A DNA stretch of 62,934 nucleotides, counting the filler, from Stramenopiles sp. TOSAG23-2 (lineage: Eukaryota), in the NCBI GenBank assembly GCA_900128395.1. It is 17 parts of 17 records of this genome, joined end to end, with 100 filler letters (N's around TTAATTAATTAA, not from the genome) between each part and the next. Parts side by side here need not be neighbours in the genome. Positions count along the whole stretch, not along the records: positions 54,138 to 57,880 come from LT651115.1; 16 more parts are not named here. One strand, 5' to 3'. A program made the position numbers and the translations under genes. The notes beneath the pieces are model-generated. The model did no database searches, was not told the origin of the DNA, and saw only the letters and a list, made by a program, of their open reading frames with translations. Below are positions 4,266 through 58,217 of this stretch, piece after piece. Each line of letters begins with the position of its first letter. The first letter of the stretch is position 1.

Positions 4266-7154
4266 TCATTTTATATTATTCTTCACATGAAACTCGCGAT
4301 AACTCTCTTCTATACTCGTATACCCAGCGCCAAAGACTGAAGTGGCTATTCGCGAGAAACCAATATAATTATCAGCAGATAAAACGATCAAAACAAAAAT
4401 AGTCAAGGTAAAAAAACCAACAGTAGGATTGTGTGCAATTCCTGCTAAACTGTTTGCACCATTTGCTACTTTCTGTAATTTAGCATTTATTTTGTCAAGG
4501 TTCAATAATTGATTACCATATGTCTGGCTTAAAACATCATAGACAGCATCGTTATGATGAACACCATCTAAGGACAATCGCTTTCCGGCTGCATTATTTG
4601 TTATTTGATCAGCTTGTAAAACAAAATCGACTCCATTCATCACAGTAGATGCTTTTGTGGCATCCAATACACGTTGATAGCGAGCTGCTGTCATATTCTC
4701 CTTTCGTTCAGGATTTAAATGTAGTGGTTCAATTTTCGGAGGGAGCATCCAACCAATAACAGCCTGAGGACAACGCATCCTGAAATCTCGAATAGTAGAT
4801 TTTAAACCATCCAACCCATATTTTAGGGAATATTTACGATCTTCAGGATCCCAACGTACGTGCCATGCACCTATAGACACTAAAAGATAGTGTTTTTTAT
4901 TTTTTGAACATTTTATTTTGCTATTTTCAAAAAACCATTTATGAACATTGCTTGCCATCGGACGCCAATAAAAATTAATATCGATCCCTTCATGTGAATG
5001 TCCTTTAAGACTTGTTAATTTATCTTTGTGCCTATCAGCTTCAGAGAAAGGAATTTCATGACCCACTAATCTTCCAACACCTTGCGTCATTTTACGAGCA
5101 AGAGAATCTCCAACAATTGAAATGACTGATTCTTCAAAATACTTATGCCAAAATTTATTTGGTTTTGGTGCATAATGTGTAATGGGACGCATAGCTGGAC
5201 ATGCTTCCAAAACTTTTGGATAATGTGTATTTTTCCTTGCAAATTGAAAGTGATATTGATTTGCATCAATCTTGAAACACATATTACCATGATATTCATC
5301 TATAGCCTTTTCACAGTCCTCCGTCGATGCCGCAAACGTCCATGCACCTGTACCCATGGCAGTCGTACAATCTCTCAGCTTTGATTTATGATGTGCAGAG
5401 TAAAGATCAAATCCATTATTATGTTCGTTACTATTTGCTAAGTAAAAAAGAAACATTCCAAATACATATGTTCCAGCGCTTAAACCTATCATCTTTCCTC
5501 CAAACACATTAGATATCCTCTCATTACCTTCATTCTGTAATTCAACACTCGTTGAAATCGTCGAATCTACTGCTTCTAATTGATTGCTGATCCCATCTTT
5601 ATTGGCTTCTTTTGCTTTTTGTATCGAAGCTTGAAAATAATTATACACAACACTTGCTCCTGCCATACTTGTCCATATAATCATAAGTATTTTTGTCGTC
5701 ATTGCGTGGCGATTAAGACTCATAATGCAAAATGCTATCATGTAACAAATTCCAAAACCAACGAAAAGGTAAAGCAAGTTTTTAAATGCTTCATTTTTAT
5801 TATTTGGTATCAACATAGCACGCAAACCAATAGTTATACGAAACATTCTAAATGATATATATATGTAAATAGCTGTAGTAATAACCATATTAATTAATGG
5901 ATAACCAGGTATTAAAATAAATCTGGATTTTGCATTATCAGCGAGCCATACATGATGCTGCAGTAAATATGTCTCCAATGTTATCTTTCCCATTTGAGCT
6001 AATAAATTTGAATGATACATCCGTCCATAGCTCGATATGTTACGTAACAAAATATAAAACAGCAACGGAATCCAAAAGAAATATGGATGCATTTGATTAT
6101 ATTGCAATTTAGGCAAAAAAAAGATATTTTTCACCCACATTACAAAGCCGATAAGCAAAGGTATCAACAAAAAACATTTAATTAACATATTTGTCGATTT
6201 TTGAAGTTTCTCAACACGTGCCGTCCATGTAACAAGCAATGGAAAATTGATAGCAAATATCATACCAAACATCGCACTATAATGGTCTAAACCAGATCTA
6301 AAATGCCATTCATGCCTAGTACCAGATTGAGCACCAACAATTTGTTCCGTCGAAAGAAATGACCATACCAAATTGAAAATAGCTGGAAATTCCCAAATGA
6401 CATATACCAAAAGTCCAAAGCAAATCAATTTTAATCGTAATATAAATTGTGACGTATGGTTTGATTCTTTCTGTATACGCATAACTACGAAAGTTGTAAG
6501 GAAATAAAACGTATGCAAAGGACATATATAATATAATATATATGTGTTATCTAATATTACGCAAAGCAAAAAGACAAAAAAATTCAGTCTCCACATCATT
6601 TGTAAAAATCGAATAATTCCAAAATCTTGCTTAATGTAAAAAAAAGAAACGTTCCCAAATCCAGTCATCCATACATAACAACTTATGAATATACGAATGG
6701 CATTATAAACTTCCTTTTCATGGAAATAGTGATATGCTAAAAATAAATATTGCATCCACCCTTTCCATTCTTCGGTCTGGTCACGATTCAGCACGGTGTT
6801 AATATCATTTTTATTACGTTTAAAAGTAAGTAATGCACATATTGTAAATATTGCAAATAATGTCCAAAATAACGTTTTCGTACCAAAACGTTGTTCATGT
6901 GGCGTATATGGCATATTTTCACACCACCATATGTACAACATAATAAATCCACATTCAACTAACATCTGCAACAATTGTCGCACGGATTCTGTTGTCATAC
7001 TAAGTTTCGCTACATGTTTACTTTTATTCTTTTTTGGAGACCCATTTTTTCTTTTTTTCTCTTTATTATTACTGTCGTATACAAATAATAAATGTACAAG
7101 CAAAGAGATGGAAAAAAATATTAATGAGGCTACACTTCCAACTTGTTTCATCAT
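4266..7154 (-). CDS. CAS1/RWA-family (Cas1_AcylT) O-acetyltransferase with C-terminal SGNH/PC-esterase-like domain
   Basis: LNRDQTEEWKGWMQYLFLAYHYF, YNAIRIFISCYVWMTGFGN, YYICPLHT, EWHFRSGLD and GKITLETYLLQHHVW match the RWA/CASD1 transmembrane domain. The later IVGDSLARK...SLDGVH is a GDS/DxxH esterase motif. Confidence 0.9.
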   Translation of the reverse strand: MMKQVGSVASLIFFSISLLVHLLFVYDSNNKEKKRKNGSPKKNKSKHVAKLSMTTESVRQLLQMLVECGFIMLYIWWCENMPYTPHEQRFGTKTLFWTLFAIFTICALLTFKRNKNDINTVLNRDQTEEWKGWMQYLFLAYHYFHEKEVYNAIRIFISCYVWMTGFGNVSFFYIKQDFGIIRFLQMMWRLNFFVFLLCVILDNTYILYYICPLHTFYFLTTFVVMRIQKESNHTSQFILRLKLICFGLLVYVIWEFPAIFNLVWSFLSTEQIVGAQSGTRHEWHFRSGLDHYSAMFGMIFAINFPLLVTWTARVEKLQKSTNMLIKCFLLIPLLIGFVMWVKNIFFLPKLQYNQMHPYFFWIPLLFYILLRNISSYGRMYHSNLLAQMGKITLETYLLQHHVWLADNAKSRFILIPGYPLINMVITTAIYIYISFRMFRITIGLRAMLIPNNKNEAFKNLLYLFVGFGICYMIAFCIMSLNRHAMTTKILMIIWTSMAGASVVYNYFQASIQKAKEANKDGISNQLEAVDSTISTSVELQNEGNERISNVFGGKMIGLSAGTYVFGMFLFYLANSNEHNNGFDLYSAHHKSKLRDCTTAMGTGAWTFAASTEDCEKAIDEYHGNMCFKIDANQYHFQFARKNTHYPKVLEACPAMRPITHYAPKPNKFWHKYFEESVISIVGDSLARKMTQGVGRLVGHEIPFSEADRHKDKLTSLKGHSHEGIDINFYWRPMASNVHKWFFENSKIKCSKNKKHYLLVSIGAWHVRWDPEDRKYSLKYGLDGLKSTIRDFRMRCPQAVIGWMLPPKIEPLHLNPERKENMTAARYQRVLDATKASTVMNGVDFVLQADQITNNAAGKRLSLDGVHHNDAVYDVLSQTYGNQLLNLDKINAKLQKVANGANSLAGIAHNPTVGFFTLTIFVLIVLSADNYIGFSRIATSVFGAGYTSIEESYREFHVKNNIK

Positions 7155-8078: not shown

Positions 8079-10112
8079 TCATAAAGATATGACACCTAAC
8101 ACTTCCGGTTTACGACTTTGTACATTATATATTTGCAATGTTTTATGCCCCTCGTTTCTAGGATCAATTTTATATTTCTGATAAAAAAATCCATCTGGAT
8201 TAAATGCAGTTACAGGCCTTGTATGTATCATCGGTGTTTTATCTATTACAGCAACACCATTATAATTCAATAAATGTGGCCATACTAAATCTAAACACCA
8301 ACCAGATTTGATACGATCGGCATCTAAGGTTTTCCATACATGTTGCAGTGCATCTACGTGTAAACATGGCGCCATGATTTCTACAAAATTCGTAAATCTT
8401 AAGATATTACTTGGACGTTGTATTAAAATTTTATGTTCAACATTTAAATCCACAAGACTTGGTTGGCATAAATTCAATTTATATTTTTTTGCAATATGAA
8501 AAAACTCATTGATCGAATCTACACGAATTGACAAATCATCATCTGGCATCCATATATATTCATACTTTTTCCATGGTAAAATTTCATTTGATGATTTCAA
8601 TGCATGTCGTATTAATTGCCATTTTGGTCCTTGTCGTTTGATGAAATATGTCGATTCTGTTTTATACCTATTTTCTACAGTTTGATCATTTCCATAATAA
8701 ATAACACATACATCAAATTCACGGGATGTTGTTGTATACCAATTATGATCATGGTGCAATGAATTATCACCAGCACATACAATTATTAAATTATTCCTTT
8801 TTTTATTATTTAATACGTTATTGTTATTATTATTATTATTATTATTGATTGTAGTTGTAGTAGCAGTACTGTCAACGACACTGCTTCGCGTCGTCGTCGT
8901 AGTGGTAGTGGTAGTGCTACTCTCCTCAATATCGGCTTCTACTGCTTGAACATCTTCTATTGTTAATTTGATACCATCATTACAAAATGTTAACCATGTT
9001 TTCAAATCAACCGTACCTTCTTTAAATTTTCTAGCAAATATCGCTTTTCCTTCAATATAACCTTTATCAATCACATCTTGTGTCAAACTTGTAAATGCTT
9101 TTGGGTGTGCACCACCTTCACTCCAATCAACATATGTCACTTTTCTACGAATAATTCCATCACCACCATTCTCTGGTTCTTTTTCTGAATCAATTGCCCC
9201 AATAATAGCCATTAATGTTGGTAAGCATATTTCATCTGCCACTTTGACTTTGGAAAAATGTGGCCATACAGGACTTTTTAATAAATTTGGCAAATCAATA
9301 ATACATGCTTGTGCATGTTTACGTGTTAACATAACCCATGTATCGCATTTATATACACATTCTTTAGGAATCGCATTTCGATTTACAGCATTCATCATCA
9401 TTGTATCATATCCATCAACAGGCGTTTGATATGCTTTTAGCCAACTTTTTTCAGTTTCAAATAATAATTTAGATGCATTTTCAAAGGAACAAATTGGTAT
9501 ACAACTTTCAGATACATAACATAGTCGTTCCACGTCTATATCTATTAAAGCGATTTCAAATAATTTCAATAATGCACGTGTCACTTCAATTGCACCCCAA
9601 TTTGGTTTAAAATTTATAATTTGACCATTGTTATCCCTTATTAAATGTCTTTTTGCCCACTTTGTCTTCAATTTTTCTGGAAATTTTGCATGTATATAAA
9701 CATTTACGTTGTATTTGCTATTATTATTATTACTTTGTCGTATCCATTCTCTCCATATTTTTTCATGTGGTATATCTTCAACAACTAAAAAACACAATGC
9801 AATAGTAGGCTTTGAATTTTTGCTGGAAGATGAAGATGATGATATGCTTGATTGCAATAGTAACGTCTTTTCTTTTCGTAACTGACGTAATTGCTTCACT
9901 TGTGGCGTTGCGTATTTTTCTTCATCGTTATTATTTTGTTTTCGTTGTTCTTTTTCTAACATTTTCTTTCTTTGTTTTGGATCACGTCTTCTACGTTTGT
10001 GTTTTGAATGTTTTGCTAATAATCCAGAAAATAAATCATTGGATTTGTTGTTGTTGTTGTTGTTGCTATTTCCACCATTTCTATTGGGTCCATCATATCT
10101 TCTTTTTGGCAT
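8079..10112 (-). CDS. Core-2/I-branching (GT14-like, DUF266) glycosyltransferase fused to DUF707
   Basis: N-half IALCFLV..IPHEKIWREW..VYIHAK..WGAIEV..A...L...AL..VSESCIPICSF..ADE..TYVDW..HPK..FARKF. C-half FDVCVIYYG..GPKW..YEYIWMPDDDL..LCQPSL..FVEIMAP..GWCLDLVW..VAVID.TPMIHT. Confidence 0.85.
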   Translation of the reverse strand: MPKRRYDGPNRNGGNSNNNNNNKSNDLFSGLLAKHSKHKRRRRDPKQRKKMLEKEQRKQNNNDEEKYATPQVKQLRQLRKEKTLLLQSSISSSSSSSKNSKPTIALCFLVVEDIPHEKIWREWIRQSNNNNSKYNVNVYIHAKFPEKLKTKWAKRHLIRDNNGQIINFKPNWGAIEVTRALLKLFEIALIDIDVERLCYVSESCIPICSFENASKLLFETEKSWLKAYQTPVDGYDTMMMNAVNRNAIPKECVYKCDTWVMLTRKHAQACIIDLPNLLKSPVWPHFSKVKVADEICLPTLMAIIGAIDSEKEPENGGDGIIRRKVTYVDWSEGGAHPKAFTSLTQDVIDKGYIEGKAIFARKFKEGTVDLKTWLTFCNDGIKLTIEDVQAVEADIEESSTTTTTTTTTRSSVVDSTATTTTINNNNNNNNNNVLNNKKRNNLIIVCAGDNSLHHDHNWYTTTSREFDVCVIYYGNDQTVENRYKTESTYFIKRQGPKWQLIRHALKSSNEILPWKKYEYIWMPDDDLSIRVDSINEFFHIAKKYKLNLCQPSLVDLNVEHKILIQRPSNILRFTNFVEIMAPCLHVDALQHVWKTLDADRIKSGWCLDLVWPHLLNYNGVAVIDKTPMIHTRPVTAFNPDGFFYQKYKIDPRNEGHKTLQIYNVQSRKPEVLGVISL

Positions 10113-15538: not shown

Positions 15539-18500
15539 ATTTTCATTTTGAACTATTTTAGTAATAGTAATTATATCTTTATCAATGTTACCAACATAAA
15601 AGCTTCCGCCGCGCAATGCATTATAATATGCATTACGGATATCCTCTTTCATCGCGATGACTATATCCTTGCAAGAAGTTGTTGTTGAATTGTCACTGTC
15701 TTTTTTTTCGTTGTAAAATTTAAATGTAATTTGCAACATGTGTTTCAAATATTCTGTAGAATCGTTGCTTTTTTTATTACTTCTCCCTTCTTTCAATGGA
15801 TATACTAGCATAGGTGTTTTTTGGGCCCAAATTGGCCACCAACTCAGACTATTATTACTATTTCGGTGCCGATGCGTATTGGTTGCCTGTCTTAATTTAG
15901 CACATTGTAATTCATTCAATACTAATCGTCTAACTTCGATAGGACATTTGCCTTGACGATCCCATAGCGCCTGACCTCGGTCGACGATAACTTCTCTTTC
16001 AATGCGCTTTGAAGCAGATCTAGGATTACCACCAACCGCCATAGGTGTACCAAAGTACAAACTACCTGACGGAATGCTTATCTTATAAATTACACCAGAC
16101 ATTGTAAATACATGTCGATCAAAAAAAACGGTCATAACATTATTACCAAATCCAATAGAGGATTTAGCTAATACAACATTTTCTGATACAATAGGAATTT
16201 TAGTTATCATAGAGGTAGAGTAAATACTACCTTTCGTAACAAATATAGGAGCGACCTTGATGTATGCGGACTTCCGTCGGTTCTTAAAAATAGGAAAGGC
16301 CTTTCCGTCATGTGATTGGAATTCAAATGAAATCGCTGTCGTACCACGTGGAATTTGAATTCTTTGATTTGATATTGCTGGTACATTTGATTTACTATTT
16401 TTTCGCTTTACAATAAACCTGCAGGTTTGAGATCCCAAAAAACCAGTTCCGGTTTTAATATGAAAGTCACTATCGTGTTTATACTCTTTTCTTTCCATTT
16501 GCGATTTATAAGCTACACCAGACAACAATTGGTATACCTTTCCATCTTCCAATCGTTTATACGCTTCCCCCTCCAGCAATTGTCTAGAAGACAATTCAAT
16601 TTCTCTTTCAAAAAGGCGCAAATCACTTCTGCATGGTGGAGAAAACCCCCTCTTTCGCCAATTTGATATATTTTGCATATCTAAGCGTAAAAGACGTTCA
16701 TTTCTAGCTTTTTCAAACCTTTTTTTATCAAGATACTCCCGGGCACCGTAGTCCTTTTTTTTTTTAATTCTTTAAAGAAGTTTTCTGCGATTTCAATGTT
16801 ATTTGTTTTACAATATATACTGATTAGAATATTATAAGTGTCCGCGGTTCTAACAATACCTTTCTCTTCCATTTCGTTAAAAATGGTCTCTTCAAAACCC
16901 ATTTTAAAATTTTCGTGGTTTCCATACATCGCGATAATCGCATTATACATTGTGATTGATGGTTCGATTACACTCATAGAATCTTCTTCTGATGCACTAG
17001 AGCACCGACTTTGCCCATTACTGTTTTCTAAAACTACAGTGAACGTAGATTCTTTGCCAAATGCTTTGCGAGATGCCACTGTAATTAAATTACTAATTTT
17101 AATTCCAAAAATGAATGTAATATTGCTGCATTCGTTATCATCTATATCTTCTATATTTTGTTTTCGCATTTCCAAGGCAAAAAAATGCTGATTATTTTGA
17201 TCTGTTTCGACTAAATGATATTTCTCTCCATATGGATGGCAATAAAGTAAGCATCGCTTAATTTTTTTAGCCTCCATTTTATCCACTCGGAAAGTTACTT
17301 TACATAAATATGTGGTACCAGAATCATTTTCTATGACAGTCTTAATAGAGTGTAATACTTCCTTTGGTTTAGATGGGACTGGAATAATCAAAGATTTGTG
17401 AGCTATTTCGTCTTTACCGCGTAAAGGACAGTGTTTTAGGTCCTGTGTAATTGGATAATATATATTGTGCACGTTTGCAAAATCTTTATCATACCATGTA
17501 TTAACATGCCCCCGATGTAAAACACGCAACCATATAGCTTCCGCTGCTAGTAAGATCCTATGCGTCAACATATATTGGTTGCATGCAAGAAAGTCATATA
17601 TGGAATTACTAAGTAAAATTTCATCCTCGCCATCGTCTGTTTCACTTAGCGTGAATGCTATGCCTTCTAAAATCGTAATTCTCTCAATTTTGCCTTGCGT
17701 TATATCATGCAAAGATTTATATCTCGCATAGCCCGGTAGCTCTAGATTTTGATTGGACTTTTCAAGCTTTTCCAGCTCAAGCACTAAATGGGCATCACAA
17801 AGATCACGGGGGCTGAAACCCGCGTTGTTCAATTCAAACGGATCGCATACGGCATCAACCAAAATTTGAGCAATTCGATGAAAGCCTTGGCTTGCTGCAA
17901 CATGCAATGCTGTATTTCCGGTAGCACTTCTTGTATATGGTTCCCCCCCCGCATTTAATAATTGTAAAACCATTCGCTTTTGCCCTGACATAGTTGCACG
18001 TATAATGGGGGAGTGTAAGCTTTCAACTTGAGCATTTATCCCTGCATTGATAGATTTTTCAATGTAGGATAATTTCTCTTCCTCCTCTTCGGTTTCCAAA
18101 TCTCCCAATGATATTTGAAATTTTAAACTACGTTGCTTGGTGAACATAGAATCTGCTATAAATCCAAGTTCCTTGACAGGTTTTCCAACGAATGCACTTT
18201 GTGGGCTTTGATATTGATGTACATCCATGGCCCAACCTTTCAACTCGTTGAACATTGTGCCTAAAATGTAATGAAGTGGCGTGTCAATTTCCGCCATCAT
18301 CTCGATTGCAACGTTAAAAGCACCGGAGCCATTTATGACTTTATATATTGTTTTACAATTACTTTCATCAAAATGCACAGCAGATGGGTCTAAATCTATG
18401 ACATTCCCAGCAGCATCTATTCGGGGCTTCTTGTTCATCAACATTATCACCCCAATCAATTTTTTCTCGTCGTTTAAACCTATTCTTTCAGAATCTTTTT

Positions 18501-19275
18501 TCATTTGTTTTGTTGAATAAATTGGAACGCCTAGTAAATTTTTTGTTCTAAAATCCATTTCAATATCTGCACTAGCTGAAAAAAATGTATTTTCAGTTAC
18601 ATCATCTGATTTGTAAATAAAATGGCCATTTCCGACATGTATCCATTCTGGATCTTCTGTCAACGTCTTTGTGTCATTTACTGTTATACTATTGTACACC
18701 ATACCTTCTATCCCCTCATTCATGGCAATTGCAAAAGTGTGAAGTTGGCGTGTGCCACTTTCAAAATAACTGGTGTATAAACGCTGCCGTACATTGTCAA
18801 CTAAGTAAAGAACCGCTCGGCTTGCTTCAGACATTTTTGCACAAGCTCCAGTTATGAAATTTTCAACAGGTTGAGTCGCTTTTCTCCTATTCGACATTGT
18901 CATGGCGGTTTCAAACAGGAGCAGATTTACTGCCACTGTGTTTCCAACATTAGCTGCAAAGTGTAAAGGCATCCAGCCACTTTTGTTACACGCAAACTGG
19001 TTAGCGCCATTTCTAAGAAGGATAATAATTAAAGTGCCAGCATGCCCACTATGGTCTTGATTGTCCTTCTCTTGCATATTGCTATCTTTATTACGGAGGC
19101 TGTGGCACACCCAATGTAACGGAGTATTTCCAAGTTCATCCCTCGTATTGACATCTGCGCCCTTTTCCAGCAAAGTAACTACCACCGGAACTTGCTGTGC
19201 ACCTAACTCGTTACCATTGCGACAGGCGTGTAGTAAATACAGGTTATACGATTCGATCATAAGCTCGTCAGACAT
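15539..19275 (-). CDS. Large ankyrin + GAF-like + ankyrin + PPR protein, 3'-truncated; one frameshift at an A11 run (16755-16765)
   Basis: Ankyrin (GADVNTRDELGNTPLHW; GWMPLHFAA; GNTALHVAA), GAF-like (DFRTKNLLGVPI...LIGVIMLMNK...F), PPR (PSITMYNAII; DTYNILISIYCK..NIEIAENFFKEL). The frame of ORF 15491..16678 stays open upstream to the A11 run. Confidence 0.7.
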
Positions 19276-24646: not shown

Positions 24647-26095
24647 ATGGCGCAACTACTGGAAACAAATGGTACTTCCATCAGAACTTCCAATAATAAT
24701 ATGGATTATGTCAAATTATACAACCAAAGTGAAAATGAACTAATCAATGAAGTAATGCCATTTTGGTTAAATTTTGGTATTGATGAACAATATGGTGGAT
24801 TTATATGTGGGTTGAAACACAATGGTGACATTGATGATGATAGCAAATATGCATGGTATCAAGGTAGAGGTGCATGGATTATGTGTAAATATTATGAAGG
24901 ATATAAACAAGATCCAAAGTATTTAGATATTGCACGAAATAGTTTATTATTTACATTAAAACATTGTTGTAACTGGGAGGAAACAAAAGTGATTGAAAAA
25001 GAAAAATGTATTACTGCATACATTGATGGTGACGATACGAGTAGTGATTTGAAAAATTTGAAATTAAAACATTGTTTGACTATTGTAAATAGAAATGGAT
25101 CGATTATGGATGGTCGTACAGAAGTTGATAAAGTTGGATATGCCATGTGTTTTTTAGCGGAAGGATTAATTGCATATTCAACATTATGTAACAAACATGA
25201 GGCTGGAAAAGTAAATAATGAAAATGGTAATAAAATCGTAAAATTAGCAATTCAATTGATTAAATATTTTTATAAAATGGCAAATGATCCTAATCGTGAT
25301 GCACCAGAATCATATTTATTAAATACTCCATATGTTAAAGGAACGCGTACATTAGGGCATAGTATGATTCCTTTACGTTTTTGTACTCAACTTTTAAGAA
25401 ACAACGATGGTTTATTATCTGAGGAAGATCGAACGTATGCAACAAAACTTGCAAATGAATGTGTTACTAATATTTTAGATCGACATTATGATAAAAAATG
25501 GAATTTAGTCCGTGAAGAGATGAATCATGACTGGTCTCAACTGAATAATAATAGTAATTCTCCAGTATTATTTTATTTAGGACATGCCATTGAATCATTT
25601 TGGATGGTAATGGATGAAGCATTACGTGTTAATGATGAGAAATTATTCCATAAAGCATCTTTATATTTAAAACGGCATTGTGAATGTTGTTATGATGAGT
25701 TGACGGGTGGATTAGTTCGTGGTATATCAATTGGTGATGATCATAATGATAAATGTTTGAAAGATAAAGTAGCATGGGTACAGCAAGAAGCATTAGTTGG
25801 TACATTAATGGCAATACGATATTCTAAAAATCAAGCAATTATAGATTGGGCTACAAATTATTTTAATAAATTATACAAATGGACGTATCAATATTTTCCA
25901 TTGAAAAATTATGGAGAACAAAATTACAGCTTGTGGATGGTTGGAAGTGATCGACGTGTTGAATTTAAAGAAACATATAGTTATGGCAATGCGGGATTGA
26001 AAAGTAGAAAAGAAAATTATCATCATCCACGTATGTTAATGTTATTTGTGAAATTTTGTAAAGCAAAGATATCATCTACTATACATGATGAATGA
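24647..26095 (+). CDS. N-acylglucosamine 2-epimerase (AGE/RENBP family)
   Basis: VMPFWLNFGIDEQYGGF, KYAWYQGRGAW, LGHSMI, GHAIESFWMVMDEA, KVAWVQQEAL and KENYHHPRML motifs; intronless, 482 aa. Confidence 0.9.
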   Translation: MAQLLETNGTSIRTSNNNMDYVKLYNQSENELINEVMPFWLNFGIDEQYGGFICGLKHNGDIDDDSKYAWYQGRGAWIMCKYYEGYKQDPKYLDIARNSLLFTLKHCCNWEETKVIEKEKCITAYIDGDDTSSDLKNLKLKHCLTIVNRNGSIMDGRTEVDKVGYAMCFLAEGLIAYSTLCNKHEAGKVNNENGNKIVKLAIQLIKYFYKMANDPNRDAPESYLLNTPYVKGTRTLGHSMIPLRFCTQLLRNNDGLLSEEDRTYATKLANECVTNILDRHYDKKWNLVREEMNHDWSQLNNNSNSPVLFYLGHAIESFWMVMDEALRVNDEKLFHKASLYLKRHCECCYDELTGGLVRGISIGDDHNDKCLKDKVAWVQQEALVGTLMAIRYSKNQAIIDWATNYFNKLYKWTYQYFPLKNYGEQNYSLWMVGSDRRVEFKETYSYGNAGLKSRKENYHHPRMLMLFVKFCKAKISSTIHDE

Positions 26096-29158: not shown

Positions 29159-30325
29159 TCAATTAAAACCAACATCAAAACTTTTTTCAATCTCTCTCCT
29201 TCTTTTTTTTTTCCGATCTTTTATTGCTACATAATCTACTAACGCTAAATTTTTAATGCATTTAATTGATTTATAATAATTAAACATCATAGAATGATCC
29301 ACTGCATCTAATGCAAGTAAATGCTTTTCATATGCATTTGGTAATGATTCCAATCGCCTTAGTCTCGCTTTATAAACATTAAAACACTTTTCGATCGGAT
29401 TTAACCATGGTGCATAAGCTGCTGTCCATATTATTTTTGCCCCAACTCCCTCTATCATTTGCACAACCAAATCATCTTTGTGTATAGATGCATTGTCCAT
29501 CACTACCACACTATTTGGTAGTGGATATGGCTTTAAATTTGGAACCAGTTTTTCTTCGACATATGAAACAAACCTTTCCGAATCAACTGTTCCACGACTT
29601 GGATCCTGATCGGTAGCACTTCTTTTGGCAAAGACAACTTCACATGCAGGGCGTATAAATCCATCAATATTGACAGCCCCAATAAATGTGTAATTATCTC
29701 TTGACGATGCATCAAACAATACTCGTCTTATCGCTGCTGTGCCTTTTTTGCTTCTTCCTCGTCGTCTTCTGCCATCATTTCTTGATCGATGAGTTTCATC
29801 TACAAACACAAGTTGACGAGGATCGTCAACTGTCGCTAATAAACATTGACGATATACATGTTCCTCATACTCGCAAGCTTGTGATGCCCTTTCCTGTAAA
29901 ACTTTACTAGTTAACTTTTCATCTAATAAACATCTTGAAATAGCTTTGAGTGTAAATATAACGTTAGTCCTTTGATGAATATAATGTTGAAGTTCGTCTA
30001 AAAATAAGTATGGTTTTCTAGTGATTTCATCAATAATCATTCTTTTGACTATAGAATTGATTACTTTTGGTCGTCCACACCGTAAGTAATACTTCCTTGT
30101 GATTTTCGGTGGCTCCCCAAACAGATCGAAATGTTGTTTCCATCTCCATAATGTAGTATATGGAACGCTATGTGGAGCATTATTTTTATTATTACTAGCT
30201 TGCCATGGTGATAATCCAGTAACGTCTAAAAAAAGCAACATAGCTGCTTGTATTTTTAAACTCCAGTGACTTCGCTCAGCACTTAGGAAATCATCCATGT
30301 CATACGTTATATTGTTGCCATTCAT
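29159..30325 (-). CDS. IS630/Tc1-family DD34E transposase
   Basis: HTH region (VPYTTLWRWK..GRPKVI..PYLFLDELQ), FVDET, VMDNASIH, then 34 residues from that D to the E of YAPWLNPIE; intact 388 aa. Confidence 0.93.
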   Translation of the reverse strand: MNGNNITYDMDDFLSAERSHWSLKIQAAMLLFLDVTGLSPWQASNNKNNAPHSVPYTTLWRWKQHFDLFGEPPKITRKYYLRCGRPKVINSIVKRMIIDEITRKPYLFLDELQHYIHQRTNVIFTLKAISRCLLDEKLTSKVLQERASQACEYEEHVYRQCLLATVDDPRQLVFVDETHRSRNDGRRRRGRSKKGTAAIRRVLFDASSRDNYTFIGAVNIDGFIRPACEVVFAKRSATDQDPSRGTVDSERFVSYVEEKLVPNLKPYPLPNSVVVMDNASIHKDDLVVQMIEGVGAKIIWTAAYAPWLNPIEKCFNVYKARLRRLESLPNAYEKHLLALDAVDHSMMFNYYKSIKCIKNLALVDYVAIKDRKKKRRREIEKSFDVGFN

Positions 30326-49056: not shown

Positions 49057-49971
49057 TTATAACTTGGACAACGGCGGCATACTACTACTACTACTACTAT
49101 TACTAGAATCAACATCAAACCATACATGAACTTGTCCAGTACCAGCAGCATTTTCATAATCGGATAATAAATAACCACGATTTGTAATGTTTTTACCACC
49201 ACCTAACGCACCATACATACATAAATAATGACCAAAGAAACCTTCTGGTGAAAATTTATGATAGGTTGACATACCGTCGATGACTTGTTCATGATTTCCT
49301 TGTTTCCATAATTCCAATATATTTTCATCAGCTTTTCTAGCATCAGGTGTTAATACATTTGATGCATCTTTTGATTGATGTTTTTTAAAATCATCTAATG
49401 CAGGAAATTCATGCGACATCCCGCCACTGCCAAGGTACGCAACACGTAAATCTGGTATGGAATCAATCGCTTCTTTCAGTATACAACCTAATCGTATAAA
49501 ATTATGATCCCTAGCTGCTTGACAACAACTAATCGATAATACTTTCAGATCTTCCAATCCATCTTGTAATAAATAATGGAGTACATTAACAGTTGGATAA
49601 TGTACAGGTAAAGATGGCGTCGTGACGTTTAATAATGGCACTTTTTCTCTTTTTGCAATTTCTGCTAGTTTTGTTGCTAAATCTGCACAACCATTCCAAT
49701 TATATTTATGATCTTTAATTAAATCTGGTAATTCTTCAGATGTATAAATACCATTAAATGATGAAGCGCCAGCAACAACATGGCCAGACGTTGTAAACCA
49801 ATGCGTATCAAATATTACTAAAGTATTTACATCTGCGTCTTTTAATTTTTGCCTCATTGTTTTGAATCCTTCCACTAATGAAAAATCACCACCTGGAATT
49901 CGTTCACGTACTTTATCTGGTAACATGATACCAGGTTGATGTGATACAACTGCAGCTGCAACAATCGGCAT
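49057..49971 (-). CDS. LigB-family extradiol ring-cleavage dioxygenase (homoprotocatechuate 2,3-dioxygenase HpaD-like) with PTS1
   Basis: VSHQPGI, VIFDTHW, GIYTSEELP, HYPTV, SGGMSH, PEGFFGHY and YENAAGTGQVHVWF; ends SSSSSSMPPLSKL. Confidence 0.85.
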   Translation of the reverse strand: MPIVAAAVVSHQPGIMLPDKVRERIPGGDFSLVEGFKTMRQKLKDADVNTLVIFDTHWFTTSGHVVAGASSFNGIYTSEELPDLIKDHKYNWNGCADLATKLAEIAKREKVPLLNVTTPSLPVHYPTVNVLHYLLQDGLEDLKVLSISCCQAARDHNFIRLGCILKEAIDSIPDLRVAYLGSGGMSHEFPALDDFKKHQSKDASNVLTPDARKADENILELWKQGNHEQVIDGMSTYHKFSPEGFFGHYLCMYGALGGGKNITNRGYLLSDYENAAGTGQVHVWFDVDSSNSSSSSSMPPLSKL

Positions 49972-51289: not shown

Positions 51290-52366
51290 ATGGCAACAGT
51301 GATTGATATAAAGCAAGTTGAAATAATATCAACAGAGGAGTCAGGGACAGTGAAGAAAAAGAAGAAAACATGTTGTGAAATCTGCCATGATTATATTATA
51401 GATTTTGATAATAATAAAGAAGGTAATATCCATGTAATACAACCTTGTCAATGTAAATATTTTTGTACAGCGTGTTTAAAGCTATACGTACACAATAACG
51501 TCCAAAATCGCCTGAAAGATGGCCTATTAGCATGTCCACGTACTCCAAAATGTGACTCATATATGACTGACAATTACATATTTAGAATTGCAGATTTAAA
51601 AGATAATGAGAAATATTTAAGATGGAAAATTGAAGCAGCTGAGCTAAAGCTGGCTATAAAAAATAATACACTAAAAAAGAATAAAACCATAGAGAAAGAA
51701 GAAATATATATGTTAAATAGTCTTGGTATAAAAACGAAGAAATGCCCAAAGTGTTTTGAATCAATAGAAAAATCAGATGGCTGTGATCATGTACGATGTC
51801 CTTTTTGTAATACAGATTTTTGCTGGAGATGTGGGACTGCGAATTTAACAGGAAAATACGTAAGAAAATGCGGAACTTGCAATCGAGAATTCATTGATCA
51901 TATTCATACTTCACATCATAGAAAAGTTTTTTGTTTAACATTTATATTATGGTTTCCATTGGCAATTGCTTATTGTCTATTTTGCGTTGCTTGTTGTACA
52001 GTTTGTTTTCCAATCATGTCATTCGGTGAAATGGAGATAGAATCAAATGTTTCAACAAATGATGATAACAATAATTCTATGAAAAACAACAACAACAACA
52101 ACAATAATAATAATGATGATGAAAATATATCATCAGAATTGGAGGAGAATCAAGAAGAAGATGATATTAACAATACTAGTAATACTACTAGTAGTAAAAA
52201 GAAATTTGTCAAACACACATGTTGTAATAATTTTAAAATGATTCTCTCGGTAATTTTGTTCCCATTCATTGTTGTATGTCAATTTTCTCATATTTTTGAC
52301 TGTGATTGCCTAATGCCTAATATTCCACCCAACAATAATACCGAGCCTGGCGAGGATTTTGTATAA
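51290..52366 (+). CDS. RBR-type E3 ubiquitin ligase-like protein with C-terminal TM segments
   Basis: RING1-like CEIC..PCQCKYFCTAC..CP...C and RING2/Rcat TKKCPKC..IEKSDGCDHVRC..C...FCWRC; two hydrophobic helices. Confidence 0.8.
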   Translation: MATVIDIKQVEIISTEESGTVKKKKKTCCEICHDYIIDFDNNKEGNIHVIQPCQCKYFCTACLKLYVHNNVQNRLKDGLLACPRTPKCDSYMTDNYIFRIADLKDNEKYLRWKIEAAELKLAIKNNTLKKNKTIEKEEIYMLNSLGIKTKKCPKCFESIEKSDGCDHVRCPFCNTDFCWRCGTANLTGKYVRKCGTCNREFIDHIHTSHHRKVFCLTFILWFPLAIAYCLFCVACCTVCFPIMSFGEMEIESNVSTNDDNNNSMKNNNNNNNNNNDDENISSELEENQEEDDINNTSNTTSSKKKFVKHTCCNNFKMILSVILFPFIVVCQFSHIFDCDCLMPNIPPNNNTEPGEDFV

Positions 52367-53685: not shown

Positions 53686-54138
53686 GTTTTTGAATAATTG
53701 TATCTGTACATACGTTCTCCCTTTCTGTTAATACATATTATATATTATTGTTGCGCTTTTTACCTCTTTCCTATGACGATATAAATATGTATAATAAATA
53801 TAAATATCAAAAATATATATATAATAATAACGTCTATCTGCTTTTTTTTTGGTCGATCTGCTGCTGGTCGGTCCAACAACAACAACATCAGAAGAAAACT
53901 GGAAACAAAACCACCTCAAAATAGTGAGGTTTAAATATAATAAGTACAGATTTAGTATATTATAAATATTTGATAGTTATAGCCTTGTAATCCCCCCGGA
54001 TTTGCAAGTGGTAAAAAAGGTGCACTTCTCTGAAATANNNNNNNNNNNNNNNNNNNNNNNNNNNNNNNNNNNNNNNNNNNNTTAATTAATTAANNNNNNN
54101 NNNNNNNNNNNNNNNNNNNNNNNNNNNNNNNNNNNNNG

Positions 54139-57100
54139 GCTTTTAAGGGTAGGGGATTTCTACAGAGGTGCATTCGTTGGATAGCTGACCCAAAAGTGGA
54201 ACCTTCTCCCACCAAAGACAAGAAACGAGAATTATTTATTGAATGGATCAGTAAATTAGCACTATCTCAAAGTGCAGAAACATTAGCAGAAAGAATTCTC
54301 CATGCATTGACTGATCAATTGAAAAAAAGTATTGAAAAGCATCCAAAGTCTAAGGAAGTACTAGAAAAAAATTGGGAAACAATACCTGATGCACCGTTGA
54401 CAAACCTGACTTCTCGTAACGTCTGTGATCACGTTGATAATGCCGAAAATCCGGTTTTATATGCAGAAGTCAAGAGAGAAAAGCCCTCAATATATTTGGA
54501 ATCCCCAAAAGAATGCAATGTAAGTACTGGGGATGTTCTACTTGTTTGTTTGGCACCTGAAGAAAAAAGAGGAGAGATTAAAAGATGCACAATTGACCGT
54601 GTTAAAACGACAGGACAGGGAAAAAAGAACTTGATTCTTGGGGGAGACTTTCAGAAAAAATGGGAAACAGTTGTTATCTTACCTATTAAAAAATCAAATG
54701 TATTATCGTCCATTGTTCACGTGGTTGCATTACTGCAATCACTAGCTGTATGCCATTGTTTAGCTGAAAATATGATGGATCTATCATTTATTATTGGGGA
54801 CAGTTGTGCATCAAGAGCACTATGTATTCAAAAAATGATAACCAAGTACTTTCATGATTTAAGTTTAAAAGTTAAGGAGTTACACGAACATGGAATTCGG
54901 CATATCAAAGCAAATCAGTTTGCAAGATCACATCTGTTCAATACAAAAGCAGAAAAAAAATTAAAAGAAAACTCATGTAAATATGCAATTATGAAGTTTC
55001 GGCGTGATCAAAATTGTTGGGATCTACCGGAAGGTCACAAGGATTTGTTGACTCATACGAAGAACTATATTGTTGCTAATGTAAACGAAGTTTTACTTTG
55101 TTTGAATGAAGTGGAAAATCTATGCAAAAGAGAAATGCTGGAATTCCGTGCAAGAGAAGCTAATAAAATTGAAGATTTCTTGGATCTGCTCAACATTAAA
55201 GGCAAGGAGAAGAATTCTATTGAACCAAAACGTGGCATCAATTTAAATAGCAATATTAAAAAGAAGGCACCATTGGACGATGGATCAAATGCAAAAGTTA
55301 CAACGCTAAATAGTAAGAATGTTGAAATGGAGAAATATCCAAGAAGCGTTGGTACTTCGGAACAAGTTGATGCATATCTACAGAAAGTCTATGAGAACTA
55401 TACTGAAGGAACTCAAATTGATGAGTTGACACTCACTTTTTTTCGAGAACAATGTAGACAGACTGGCGATGCCCTTTTTGGGCAACAAGATGTTGAAGAA
55501 CTATTTACTAGACTAGTTGCGGGTAACGCGGATAAAGACGAAGAAAGTTCGTCTCTGCTTAAAACTTTTTTTAAGTTTGAAACCGAAGTGAAATTCCAGT
55601 GTAGTGAAGTGAAAGAAGAAGCGAAAAGTGACTGGTTGAAAAAAAGTAATAATACTTGGGAAAAACAAATAGACCCTGAATCGAATTATATTTTCCACTT
55701 TCCAATGCTTGGAATACATTCATGGGCACAAAAACAACTTCAGGACGTAATTAACGGAGAACATCGAGAAGATGACATCTCATCCTCAGATTGTGTTGAA
55801 GGTACATCTATTACAAGGGTAACTGCTTTGAAGAATTTTGGCAACGGTTTTGCAATTCATTTACGATCTATTGATTGGTATGCAGGCAAAAAAATAACAT
55901 TTACAAAAAACACGTTTGGTTTGAACATGAACATCAAATTGTCAAATGATGTTGATTATAAACTTGTGGGTGTAGTTATGCATAACGGGACTGTACAAAG
56001 TAGCGGAAGTAGTGGTCATTTCACCGCTATTATAAATACAAAAAGTGGTTGGTTTGAAATAAATGACATGGAGAGTCGGGCAACAGAAGTAAAAATGAAT
56101 GACATGTCTTTGTTTACGCCAAATGCGACACAAGGTCAGCCATACCTTTTGTTCTATATCAAAAAGAATATTTCCTTAAGCAACCTCCAACCATTTAATT
56201 TTACATATGAACAAAATTCTTGTTACATTGATTCGTTGCTTACGGTTTTAATAAACACGATGTGGACACAATTTCAAATCTTAGATACTGGTGAAGCACC
56301 GGAGGAAATATGTGATCGCGACGTCATAAGTAACAAGCTTTGTACAAAAGATAACACGGAGGAATGTGAAAACAATAGCGACGTCATAAGTAACAAGCTT
56401 TGTACAAAAGATGCCACGGAGGAATGTGAAAACAATAGTAGAGAATACAGCGTCCGTTTACTTGGAAAAAAACGTCGCATTTATTATTTACAGAAAAGCA
56501 CCTTTTGTAAACTTGTTATTAAGAGTGAGGGCATTATTGAATATGGAGAGAAGCAGATTGTTCTAGCAGAATTAAAAAATGCAACAATTATTATTAGACA
56601 CTTGATAACATATACTATACCAAAAAAAATAGAAATTCTTCAATTTGAGTTACAGCAGGAGAAAGAAAAAAATATAGTATTTGAATTTGATAGGAGAGGG
56701 GGGTTATTTGAATTCGCAGAGGCTGTCATCAGTAATATTAAAGCCAGTGGTGTAGAAATTAATTGTGACGGTTACGAGTCGCTTGAGAAAGATTGGAAGC
56801 AATTTTGCGAAGACAAAAAGAGATTGGAGAAAGAGAAAATAAAAAGGGATGAATTGGAAAAAAGCAAAAAAAAATTGGAAAAAAGCAAAAAAAATTTGGA
56901 AGATCAATTGCATGACAATGTTTTGGAAGTAAAGCGCAGATACAAAGAAAAGAGATATTCGGCATTAATTGCAGCAGTTATAGATGAAAACCTCGAAGGT
57001 GTGAATACTCTTTTGACCGACCCGGGGGTTAAAATAAATGAAACGGATAAGAATGGTAGAACGGCCGCCTTCCATGCAGCTCGTTTAGGACTTGTAGAAA

Positions 57101-57495
57101 TATTACAGAAATTGAAAAACAAGGAGGCTGACATGTCTAAATGCGATATAGTAGGTCAAACCCCACTTTTTATTGCATCGAGCCTTAGTAAAGTCAACGT
57201 ACTCAAAGTTTTAGTTAGTAAAAACGATAATACAATTAATAAAGAGTATCTAAATAGTCCAAATAGATCTCTTTGCGACAACAAGTATCATGGGTTAAGC
57301 ACTTTGCATATAGCAGCGAAAAAAGGAAACTTGGAGGTGTGTAAAAAACTGGTTGAATTGGGAGCTGATACTGAGTGCAAGAGCCCGTCCAAAAGGACTG
57401 CCCTTCAAATTACAAAATGTTACGAAACTGCCGGTCATAAACTTGTTGCAGAGTTTTTAGAAAAGCAACTGCAAAAAGTCTCCAGCTCTCCATAA
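54139..57495 (+). CDS. USP-like cysteine peptidase (permuted motif order) + coiled coil + ankyrin repeats, 5'-truncated
   Basis: Frame open from the contig start. GQQDVEELF (55480), YKLVGVVMHNG..SSGHFTA..WFEIND..PYLLFY (55957-56157), NSCYIDSLL (56215), and C-terminal ankyrins (GRTAAFHAA, GQTPLFIA, GLSTLHIAA). Confidence 0.8.
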   Translation, partial: AFKGRGFLQRCIRWIADPKVEPSPTKDKKRELFIEWISKLALSQSAETLAERILHALTDQLKKSIEKHPKSKEVLEKNWETIPDAPLTNLTSRNVCDHVDNAENPVLYAEVKREKPSIYLESPKECNVSTGDVLLVCLAPEEKRGEIKRCTIDRVKTTGQGKKNLILGGDFQKKWETVVILPIKKSNVLSSIVHVVALLQSLAVCHCLAENMMDLSFIIGDSCASRALCIQKMITKYFHDLSLKVKELHEHGIRHIKANQFARSHLFNTKAEKKLKENSCKYAIMKFRRDQNCWDLPEGHKDLLTHTKNYIVANVNEVLLCLNEVENLCKREMLEFRAREANKIEDFLDLLNIKGKEKNSIEPKRGINLNSNIKKKAPLDDGSNAKVTTLNSKNVEMEKYPRSVGTSEQVDAYLQKVYENYTEGTQIDELTLTFFREQCRQTGDALFGQQDVEELFTRLVAGNADKDEESSSLLKTFFKFETEVKFQCSEVKEEAKSDWLKKSNNTWEKQIDPESNYIFHFPMLGIHSWAQKQLQDVINGEHREDDISSSDCVEGTSITRVTALKNFGNGFAIHLRSIDWYAGKKITFTKNTFGLNMNIKLSNDVDYKLVGVVMHNGTVQSSGSSGHFTAIINTKSGWFEINDMESRATEVKMNDMSLFTPNATQGQPYLLFYIKKNISLSNLQPFNFTYEQNSCYIDSLLTVLINTMWTQFQILDTGEAPEEICDRDVISNKLCTKDNTEECENNSDVISNKLCTKDATEECENNSREYSVRLLGKKRRIYYLQKSTFCKLVIKSEGIIEYGEKQIVLAELKNATIIIRHLITYTIPKKIEILQFELQQEKEKNIVFEFDRRGGLFEFAEAVISNIKASGVEINCDGYESLEKDWKQFCEDKKRLEKEKIKRDELEKSKKKLEKSKKNLEDQLHDNVLEVKRRYKEKRYSALIAAVIDENLEGVNTLLTDPGVKINETDKNGRTAAFHAARLGLVEILQKLKNKEADMSKCDIVGQTPLFIASSLSKVNVLKVLVSKNDNTINKEYLNSPNRSLCDNKYHGLSTLHIAAKKGNLEVCKKLVELGADTECKSPSKRTALQITKCYETAGHKLVAEFLEKQLQKVSSSP
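56318..56438 (+). repeat. 60-bp in-frame tandem repeat (2 copies, DVISNKLCTKDxTEECENNS)
   Basis: Copies differ internally (AAC vs GCC), so this is more likely genuine than an assembly duplicate. Confidence 0.75.
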
Positions 57496-58217
57496 CAATT
57501 ACCAAGTGATAAAATTAACAAGCTTTTTTAAGCTGAAGTATTATATTCGTACAAAATAAAAGTTGATTAGTATCGAGACTATGTACGCGTATATATGATA
57601 GTATATATAGTGTATATGTATCATTATATAAAATATAATTTTCTCTTACTCATATATTAATAATGATGGTTAAAATCTAAGTTAAAATATGACCCACGTG
57701 CGATAAGATCCGAACGATTTTGGAAAATGGAATTAATAGGGGGTATCCCTTGATATTCCCGATATTTTCGTATACTAACTACCTGTAAATTAGTATAACA
57801 TGTGTTTTACTCCCCTTTTCCTGTACTCGAAGGCTACGGAAATTTAGTAGACACTGTAAAATGGAAATAAAAAATTTCTTNNNNNNNNNNNNNNNNNNNN
57901 NNNNNNNNNNNNNNNNNNNNNNNNTTAATTAATTAANNNNNNNNNNNNNNNNNNNNNNNNNNNNNNNNNNNNNNNNNNNNAATAAACCTAAAAGAATGCG
58001 TAGTAGGACTGGTAAAAAGAAGTAAAAGAATTATATACCATACACGAGAGTAATTAAAATATATATTTTTTAAATATATATTTTTAATTTACAAAATATT
58101 TTTATTTTTTAATTTACACATAATTTATATTGTTTTTTAAATTTACTCATGATAATTCCTACTCTTCAGAAGAATACAATACGACGTAACTGAAATAATC
58201 TATCTCACATTAGCACA

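Follow-up and report, generated by a model that had tools for sequence, protein, structure and literature searches.

The window analysed here, a whole stretch of 62,934 nucleotides from Stramenopiles sp. TOSAG23-2 (assembly GCA_900128395.1), contains a gene for an apparently circularly permuted ubiquitin-specific protease (USP) domain. The window consists of unrelated contigs of ∼3.75 kb each with N spacers between them; genes elsewhere in it are not neighbours of the USP gene. The gene lies on contig LT651115.1 (window positions 54138–57880), where it is the sole frame on 3.7 kb and ends at 57495. Residues are numbered from the GTG at 54196 as amino acid (aa) 1; the open reading frame (ORF) runs from 54196 to 57495 on the plus strand and is open back to 54139. 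The assembly comprises 32.8 Mb in 9,146 contigs with a GC content of ∼30% and carries eukaryotic genes, and the runs containing the stretch are marine or subsurface metagenomes and one coded organism. The frame and the elements of its USP domain are as follows.

54139–57495, plus strand: reading frame of 1118 codons; 5′ contig edge open, no intron seen
55312–56157, plus strand: body of the USP domain (fingers, palm and the thumb helices that follow the Cys helix), aa 373–654, placed by Pfam UCH, a local profile and the structural model
55480–55506, plus strand: QQD box GQQDVEELF, aa 429–437; motif intact, with D432 and E435
55957–56067, plus strand: His box, with catalytic H608, aromatic gatekeeper F609, W619, and N623 and D624 as third and fourth residues
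56140–56157, plus strand: last strand of the canonical domain, PYLLFY, aa 649–654, placed by the motif and the end of the Pfam match
56158–56190, plus strand: new linker, aa 655–665, from the old C-terminus to the old N-terminus; bridged by an environmental contig (X3 record 13)
56191–56262, plus strand: relocated pre-Cys strand and Cys helix, aa 666–689, with C676 at 56221–56223 and Y671 replacing the oxyanion Asn

The QQD box, the His box, the YLLFY strand and then the Cys box follow one another in one frame (ORF 54196–57495), confirming the motif order (QQD box, His box, WFEIND, PYLLFY, Cys box) that had been proposed in a sequence-only reading of this DNA. The His-box motifs are YKLVGVVMHNG at aa 588 (55957), SGHFTA at aa 606 (56011) and WFEIND at aa 619 (56050), and the His and Trp of this box are invariant in the 35 rows of alignment A2. 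The Cys box NSCYIDSLLTVL begins at aa 674 (56215) and places C676 (NSCYIDSLL) in the same frame as the QQD and His boxes. Within the 1118 aa of the frame it is the single N-x-C-[YFW] motif and stands behind the last strand; as also proposed earlier, no Cys box lies upstream of the QQD box, and no second His box follows C676 in the frame. The canonical order of peptidase family C19, given for USP4 in the accessible part of PMC7935551, is Cys, QQD, His. Here it is QQD, His, Cys, and the domain is therefore classed as a permuted variant of the USP fold, not as a canonical member.

Profile searches place the two parts of the domain on a single canonical template. Pfam UCH (PF00443) matches aa 391–654 with profile positions 47–254 of 254 (51.6 bits, cut-off 23.9). 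A local profile built from 16 canonical USPs aligns aa 373–665 with positions 55–331 and the Cys segment, aa 674–721, with positions 32–78, the latter at 6.4 bits, which is weak alone; no further segment of the protein matches. Body and Cys segment are thus complementary on the canonical profile and amount to a single domain's worth. The ∼18-aa linker of the sequence-only reading holds as a distance, since ∼19 residues separate YLLFY from NSC, but eight of these (P666–Q673) are in register with the pre-Cys strand and loop of a canonical USP; the new linker is thus reduced to aa 655–665, ∼11 residues.

Contigs from four runs were compared with the window gene, runs with a small share being left out; contigs from RNA libraries are taken to indicate presence, not transcription. 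X3 record 13, an 823-nt contig from an RNA library of a separate study, covers 55924–56413 with 23 substitutions and no gap. It crosses the His box, the last strand, the linker and the Cys box, and carries three copies of a 60-bp repeat that is present twice in the window. This gap-free junction argues that the gene is no assembly chimera and bears out the earlier proposal of a natural permutant. Other contigs tile the QQD half, and none from the four runs spans the whole gene. In X4, a second DNA sample under the same organism label, the seven gene pieces listed are identical; this sample may have fed the same assembly.

Homologues were looked for, and 29 were found that have the same junction. 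A phmmer search of 1.84 billion representatives returned 25 matches, 12 of them with the same order of His box, YxLFY and Cys box, which indicates that the layout did not arise by chance. Searches with degenerate DNA patterns of the junction contributed a further 17 locus rows once the duplicates L014, L027, L028 and L039 had been removed. The pattern scans were noisy, with in-frame permuted matches in 2/11, 3/3, 12/13, 1/7 and 2/4 cases; a further scan gave six loci, three on contigs already known and three out of frame. Word-based searches with the query retrieved no homologue among 2382 and 723 candidates, and a search with alignment A1 gave 23 matches, one known before and the others canonical or partial. 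The candidate P0004 was rejected as a spurious repeat match. The 29 rows fall into 22 clusters at 50% identity, and the query forms its own cluster, with a best identity of 43% over the His-to-Cys segment. The distance from His to Cys is 60–70 aa in 30/30 permuted rows (68 aa in the query), and the distance from the last strand to Cys, 21 in the query, is 20–24 in 25/29 homologues that could be anchored.

Two cut points are found among these proteins. In type A, the type of the query, the cut lies after the Cys helix; by pattern, 10 homologues have a QQD-like motif ahead of His, and eight homologues begin at canonical profile positions 56–64 and end with a Cys segment that starts from 17–27. 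In type B (P0016, L016, L026 and L088, and by eye L007) the cut lies in the fingers and the order is His, Cys, QQD, with the QQD-like motif 108–131 aa behind His. One type A gene (L085) and two type B genes (L088 and L026) each stand tail to tail with a collagen-CBM5/12 gene; identity is 59% between the C-terminal parts of these neighbours and 30% between the proteases over 146 aa spanning the junction. A single junction with two cut points at one locus would be expected after tandem duplication, the route described in PMC12501173, if the intermediate were trimmed in two ways. Taken together, these results support the reading of the domain as a circularly permuted USP, and the permutation itself is almost certainly real.

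The fold was modelled with AlphaFold2 from a 35-row alignment of permuted and canonical rows, giving a predicted local distance difference test (pLDDT) score of 74 and a predicted template modelling (pTM) score of 0.77; a single-sequence model (pLDDT 30) was not used. The pLDDT is 90 for model block 291–310, which holds the Cys loop, and 79 for the linker block, and residues 299–320 form a helix. Among 48,161 chains compared, 35 reached Z ≥ 8, and the top 35 rows are all USP-fold. Model residues 12–281 match the thumb-palm-fingers fold of USP46 and USP12 at Z 15.2–15.3: USP46 aligns over chain residues 74–365 with model 12–280 (Z 15.3, root-mean-square deviation (rmsd) 3.4, 238 aligned), USP12 at Z 15.2 (rmsd 3.3, 238 aligned), and USP18 and USPL1 follow at Z 14.2 and Z 11.1. 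Because canonical USP rows were part of the input alignment, this match is not fully independent. The matched ranges begin at residue 74 of USP46, 79 of USP12, 255 of USP7 and 148 of USP14, behind catalytic cysteines that we take to lie at positions 44, 48, 223 and 114, respectively; this locates the cut after the Cys helix. The PDB matches listed by Foldseek are all USP-fold; against viral models it returned USPs at TM scores of 0.2–0.5, from which motif order is not visible. In several VIA rows the match continues up to model residue 323, where its partner is a C-terminal extension of USP7, USP34 or USP9X; these rows are neutral on the placement of the Cys helix. We consider it very probable that the protein folds as a single domain, and the pTM of 0.77 and the pLDDT of 90 favour a predicted packing of the Cys-loop block onto the body.

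The residues that identify a USP active site are present: the catalytic Cys box (C676), the QQD box, and G-H-aromatic together with N623/D624. In the consulted sections of PMC7391069, an aromatic residue after the catalytic His is described as a gatekeeper typical of deubiquitinases (DUBs) that favours Gly-Gly tails, and those of PMC10867860 give Asn-Asp as the third and fourth residues in active USP40 and USP48. The best overall explanation, to which we assign a probability of roughly 0.6, is that the gene encodes a single-copy USP (C19) domain that was circularly permuted in nature. Its chain would in effect have been opened in the loop behind the Cys helix. From the old last strand YLLFY, the 11-residue linker would lead to what was once the first strand and to the Cys helix, packed back into the thumb. 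The old termini are near enough for an 11-residue bridge, so the relocated strand and helix would occupy their canonical place. C676, H608 and N623/D624 would meet between thumb and palm as a papain-type site; following USP chemistry, fingers and palm would grip the tag, F609 together with the acidic residues of the QQD box would select a Gly-Gly tail, and C676 would attack. An isopeptidase for ubiquitin or a ubiquitin-like protein (UBL) is the most likely function, with the ankyrin repeats and the orphan regions perhaps choosing the substrate or the place. The protein is probably an active protease; whether ubiquitin itself would be the substrate is evenly balanced.

Several results weigh against this reading or parts of it. 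In the active site, the oxyanion-hole Asn five residues ahead of the catalytic Cys (Cys-5; N218 in USP7, N271 in USP2) is Y671 here, a loss that the sequence-only reading had overlooked. Its claim that the catalytic triad is retained stands for the residues themselves, but the activity that it implied is a prediction weakened by Tyr671. The Asn at Cys-5 is called extremely conserved, and positioned for oxyanion stabilisation, in the part of PMC10867860 consulted; it is found in 31/33 canonical and 18/29 permuted rows. An aromatic residue at Cys-5 is coupled to Asp at Cys+3 in 6/6 rows versus 2/57 others. These six rows represent four independent lineages, one of them canonical (P0012); the query shares Tyr at Cys-5 and Asp at Cys+3 with P0009, and the type B cluster has Trp. 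In these alignments the pairing suggests a compensated active-site variant rather than decay. In the model, the fingers are poorly predicted (pLDDT <50 at residues 120–136 and 183–196), and the structural aligners are sequential and hence silent on the C676–H608 distance. Among the environmental contigs, X2 record 7, an RNA contig, is net 11 bases short in the A-rich region ahead of the ankyrins. The 40 differences listed, of 122, include 35 in frame that affect 32 codons, 24 of them non-synonymous; the variant codons of the USP part, among the differences listed, are non-synonymous in 7/7 cases, all in loops and none catalytic. This pattern, drawn from 40 of 122 differences and hence without a ratio of non-synonymous to synonymous rates (dN/dS), fits drift or diversifying selection. 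As to descent, a FastTree phylogeny of 60/73 rows (13 short rows left out) was uninformative, body-only scores were 65.5 bits for the permuted set versus 70.8 for host and 75.3 for eukaryote-like USPs, and the four best pairwise body matches are canonical, the bodies having been cut with the canonical profile. As to location, codon use fails to separate host from virus (GC content at third codon positions 0.30; codon score −1.04, inside the host range of −1.14 to −0.77 across 27 genes), and the assembly has two VLTF3 and three A32 matches, so viral DNA is present in it.

The rival explanations differ in which of these results they address. Amplified single-cell DNA can give chimeras, and tandem USP arrangements are present among the matches (P0005, L017), so the motif order might reflect an assembly chimera, or a tandem canonical USP remnant whose Cys box is foreign to the preceding His box. 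The junction is nevertheless bridged in a separate study and profile coverage is single and complementary; in P0005, 139 aa separate His from the following Cys and a full domain comes after, versus 60–70 aa in 30/30 permuted rows. Such an origin is highly improbable and is largely refuted, and the earlier view that the domain is not a remnant of two tandem USPs is upheld by the complementary coverage, the lack of an extra His or Cys box in the frame and the short junction kept in the homologues. The permutant might also be real but have lost most or all of its activity; such a pseudo-DUB, or a gene under relaxed constraint and drifting, would act next to the ankyrins as a scaffold or a module for binding ubiquitin. 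Tyr671 in place of the oxyanion Asn, 24/32 readable variant codons non-synonymous among the differences listed, a variable repeat number, one contig with a net 11-base loss and two word-based searches without a close homologue all point in that direction. Against it, C, H, N and D as well as the gatekeeper remain in place despite 33–43% identity to the nearest His-to-Cys segments, the coupling of aromatic Cys-5 with Asp Cys+3 suggests compensation, and a 490-nt variant covers the active-site half without a gap; we regard a weak or dead enzyme as unlikely.

An active enzyme might instead serve another substrate, a non-ubiquitin UBL or Gly-Gly-tagged proteins, as do USPL1 and viral papain-like proteases. 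The divergent, low-confidence fingers would suit this, as would relatives that are almost fingerless (P0030, L015, L024) and the same fold in USPL1 (Z 11.1) and USP18 (Z 14.2). We consider it quite unlikely, given the intact QQD box (D432, E435), best structural matches to the ubiquitin-cleaving USP46 and USP12, and relatives with OTU-like (P0002, P0003, L085; by eye) or weak UIM (L021, E 0.014) modules. A last alternative concerns location and is compatible with the mechanism of the permuted-USP explanation: the contig could stem from a giant virus that infected the sampled cells or had inserted into their DNA, which would make the gene another viral representative of the family. Each of the five relatives with a taxonomic label is an IMG/VR viral contig, the Atlas feature neighbours with taxa are Nucleocytoviricota USPs, VLTF3 and A32 matches occur in the assembly, and the gene is intronless with no neighbouring gene on its 3.7-kb contig. 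This origin is unlikely in view of the host repeat right behind the stop, which is common to ribosomal protein L26, Tyr-tRNA ligase and Myb loci, of the identical pieces in a second sample of the same organism label, and of 2.9 million viral contigs among which neither the USP part nor the C-terminal part has a relative. Scans of viral contigs with P0002 retrieved nothing, and those with P0028 one weak N-terminal match. No capsid match of nucleocytoplasmic large DNA viruses was found in the assembly, by a search that was silent on controls too.

The repeat that bears on the location of the gene is placed as follows.

57569–57880, no strand assigned: dispersed host repeat, presumably resembling a miniature inverted-repeat transposable element, at the contig end, with 48 matches in the assembly

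It starts 74 nt behind the stop, and its copies adjoin the genes for ribosomal protein L26, Tyr-tRNA ligase and Myb. Because the contig ends in a host repeat also found beside L26, the gene is probably nuclear, and we think it likely that it belongs to a low-GC marine protist. Elsewhere the repeat has inverted arms of 160 nt at 93% (L073) and 350-bp tandem copies. The assembly holds at least 29 UCH matches on 23 contigs. The Cys box stands behind the His box in 1/28 USP loci, this one, as scored by a script that failed to find the His box, or put it in the wrong place, in about ten loci; it is the sole permuted copy found among the host's USP loci. On one contig of the assembly (G000:C2392; L050, L051) one canonical USP occurs twice with equal scores in inverted orientation, a duplication or an amplification artefact. 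Among L092, L093, L094 and L095 are VLTF3 genes as well as contigs of polinton-like or small-virus type that encode A32 ATPases and an origin-binding helicase.

By structure, the query falls within a permuted family whose members come from giant-virus contigs and from metagenome contigs without a label. Of the 17 locus rows, five are viral contigs from IMG/VR, three of these with the label GVMAG, and the 12 protein rows come without context. The remaining locus rows are short unlabelled contigs or contigs within bacterial metagenome-assembled genomes (MAGs), the latter probably mis-binned. A permuted (P0025) and a canonical (P0050) protein share an N-terminus that is 86% identical over 86 aa. 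The linker of the query is similar (p < 0.02) to that of 8/25 permuted rows versus 1/9 canonical rows, five of the eight having been found by similarity to the query, which is a selection bias. Transfer from the viral or metagenome permuted family and an independent permutation are about equally likely.

Several relatives have further features of their own. L085 and L088 lie on 14–15-kb contigs inside two bacterial MAGs; these contigs are probably mis-binned viral DNA. An OTU-like domain recognised by eye (D-x-x-G-x-C ... N-H-F) precedes the permuted USP in P0002, P0003 and L085:3224–5623, with no Pfam OTU match; such a chain would carry two DUB domains. P0030, L015 and L024 are minimal permuted USPs with fingers almost absent, N-terminal hydrophobic helices and long coiled tails. 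A single ORF in L017:19–2676 (minus strand) encodes two USPs, a complete canonical one and behind it a permuted one of type A. L020:139–3228 has the permuted USP behind an SH3 and a weak macro domain, and L025:3–2348 has it behind a long region without a Pfam match that by eye is presumably an SF2-helicase end. On viral contigs, permuted USPs have as neighbours the genes for a protein with a DruA domain and a NUMOD3 motif (L016:342–3302), for a polycystin-type channel with EF hands (L007:2346–4358) and for a Ras-family GTPase (L032:7241–7837).

Compared with canonical USPs (C19, PF00443; USP46, USP12, USP1, USP18, USP7), the domain has all the boxes, a Pfam score above cut-off, the H-aromatic gatekeeper and the N/D pair, and its body superposes at Z 14–15 with an rmsd of 3.3–4.2 over 230–250 residues. 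Unlike them, it has the Cys box last and a Tyr for the oxyanion Asn, and it is joined to an N-terminus of no known family, to a 20-aa repeat and to ankyrins. The permuted OTU protease EmcB, as the part of PMC12501173 consulted describes it, is active with its Cys helix shifted to the C-terminus, and an origin by duplication and deletion was proposed. The EmcB/CoxDUB family thus resembles the present domain in having the Cys helix at the C-terminal end of the domain; its members are bacterial effectors of OTU fold with no fingers, whereas the domain here is USP-fold. Permutation is described for PPPDE, NlpC/P60, LupA and the CE clan in the accessible sections of PMC10318531 and PMC7391069. PPPDE/DeSI (C97), LRAT/C92 NlpC/P60, LupA and the CE clan likewise place His before Cys through a moved catalytic helix, with the first strand included or not, but form other clusters of the papain superfamily. 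Cluster IV, which contains the USPs, keeps canonical structures according to the consulted part of PMC10318531, where no permutant is named. The query gave no Pfam match to permuted OTU, PPPDE/C97 or the CE clan, and none appears among the 50 structural rows listed; its positive USP match makes membership in those groups unlikely. The permuted USPs of giant viruses and metagenomes have the same junction, with 60–70 aa from His to Cys, and type A has the same cut; unlike them, the query is probably nuclear, and it is at most 43% identical to them over the His-to-Cys segment. A literature search made mostly without subscription journals and without supplements found no permuted USP.

Outside the USP domain the frame contains the following regions.

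54139–55311, plus strand: N-terminal region of no known family, without a Cys box
56318–56438, plus strand: 60-bp in-frame tandem repeat (20 aa, two copies), directly behind the new C-terminus of the domain
56440–56790, plus strand: beta-rich stretch ending in a helix, PH-like by eye only
56776–56958, plus strand: charged helical or coiled-coil segment, aa 861–921; ERM_helical below cut-off, E 0.012
56965–57411, plus strand: ankyrin repeats, aa 924–1072; Ank_2 at E 2.8e-18 and related models

The N-terminal region has no Pfam match above cut-off, no weighty PHROG or PDB match, no paralogue in the assembly and no match in alignment A2. The 20-aa repeat (56318–56438) has two cysteines per copy, and three copies in the environmental variant X3 record 13. 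The beta-rich stretch (aa 749–865) gave no Pfam, PHROG or PDB sequence match.

Other contigs of the window carry genes of varied kinds. An RBR-type E3 ligase-like gene with C-terminal hydrophobic helices (51290–52366, plus strand) lies on the preceding contig and is unlinked to the USP gene. Ankyrin repeats are fused to PPR repeats at 16684–19275 (minus strand), and an intact-looking Tc1/mariner-type DDE_3 transposase lies at 29162–30325 (minus strand). Each on its own contig are a Cas1p-type O-acetyltransferase with a weak GDSL tail (4269–7154), a branching glycosyltransferase fused to DUF707 (8082–10112), an N-acylglucosamine 2-epimerase (24647–26092) and a LigB dioxygenase (49060–49971).

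USPs are the largest class of deubiquitinases. Every described USP that we found in the literature has the Cys box first, and a natural permutant departs from that arrangement. Evidently the USP fold tolerates opening either after the catalytic helix or within the fingers, a point that bears on USP folding and on the engineering of split or permuted DUBs. For annotation, permuted USP genes score as truncated and Cys-less and hence as 'inactive'. The syntenic relatives, with two cut points and one junction, offer a testable case for the duplication-and-deletion route. It is doubtful, though conceivable, that the gene is the first circularly permuted USP of a cellular genome: an active DUB with an Asn-free oxyanion site (aromatic at Cys-5, Asp at Cys+3), drawn by a marine protist from a giant-virus family that invented the permutation, with at least two cut points seen at one syntenic locus, then joined to ankyrin repeats and evolving fast in host-virus conflict. 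If the copy is truly nuclear, the family would extend from viruses into the cellular ubiquitin system.

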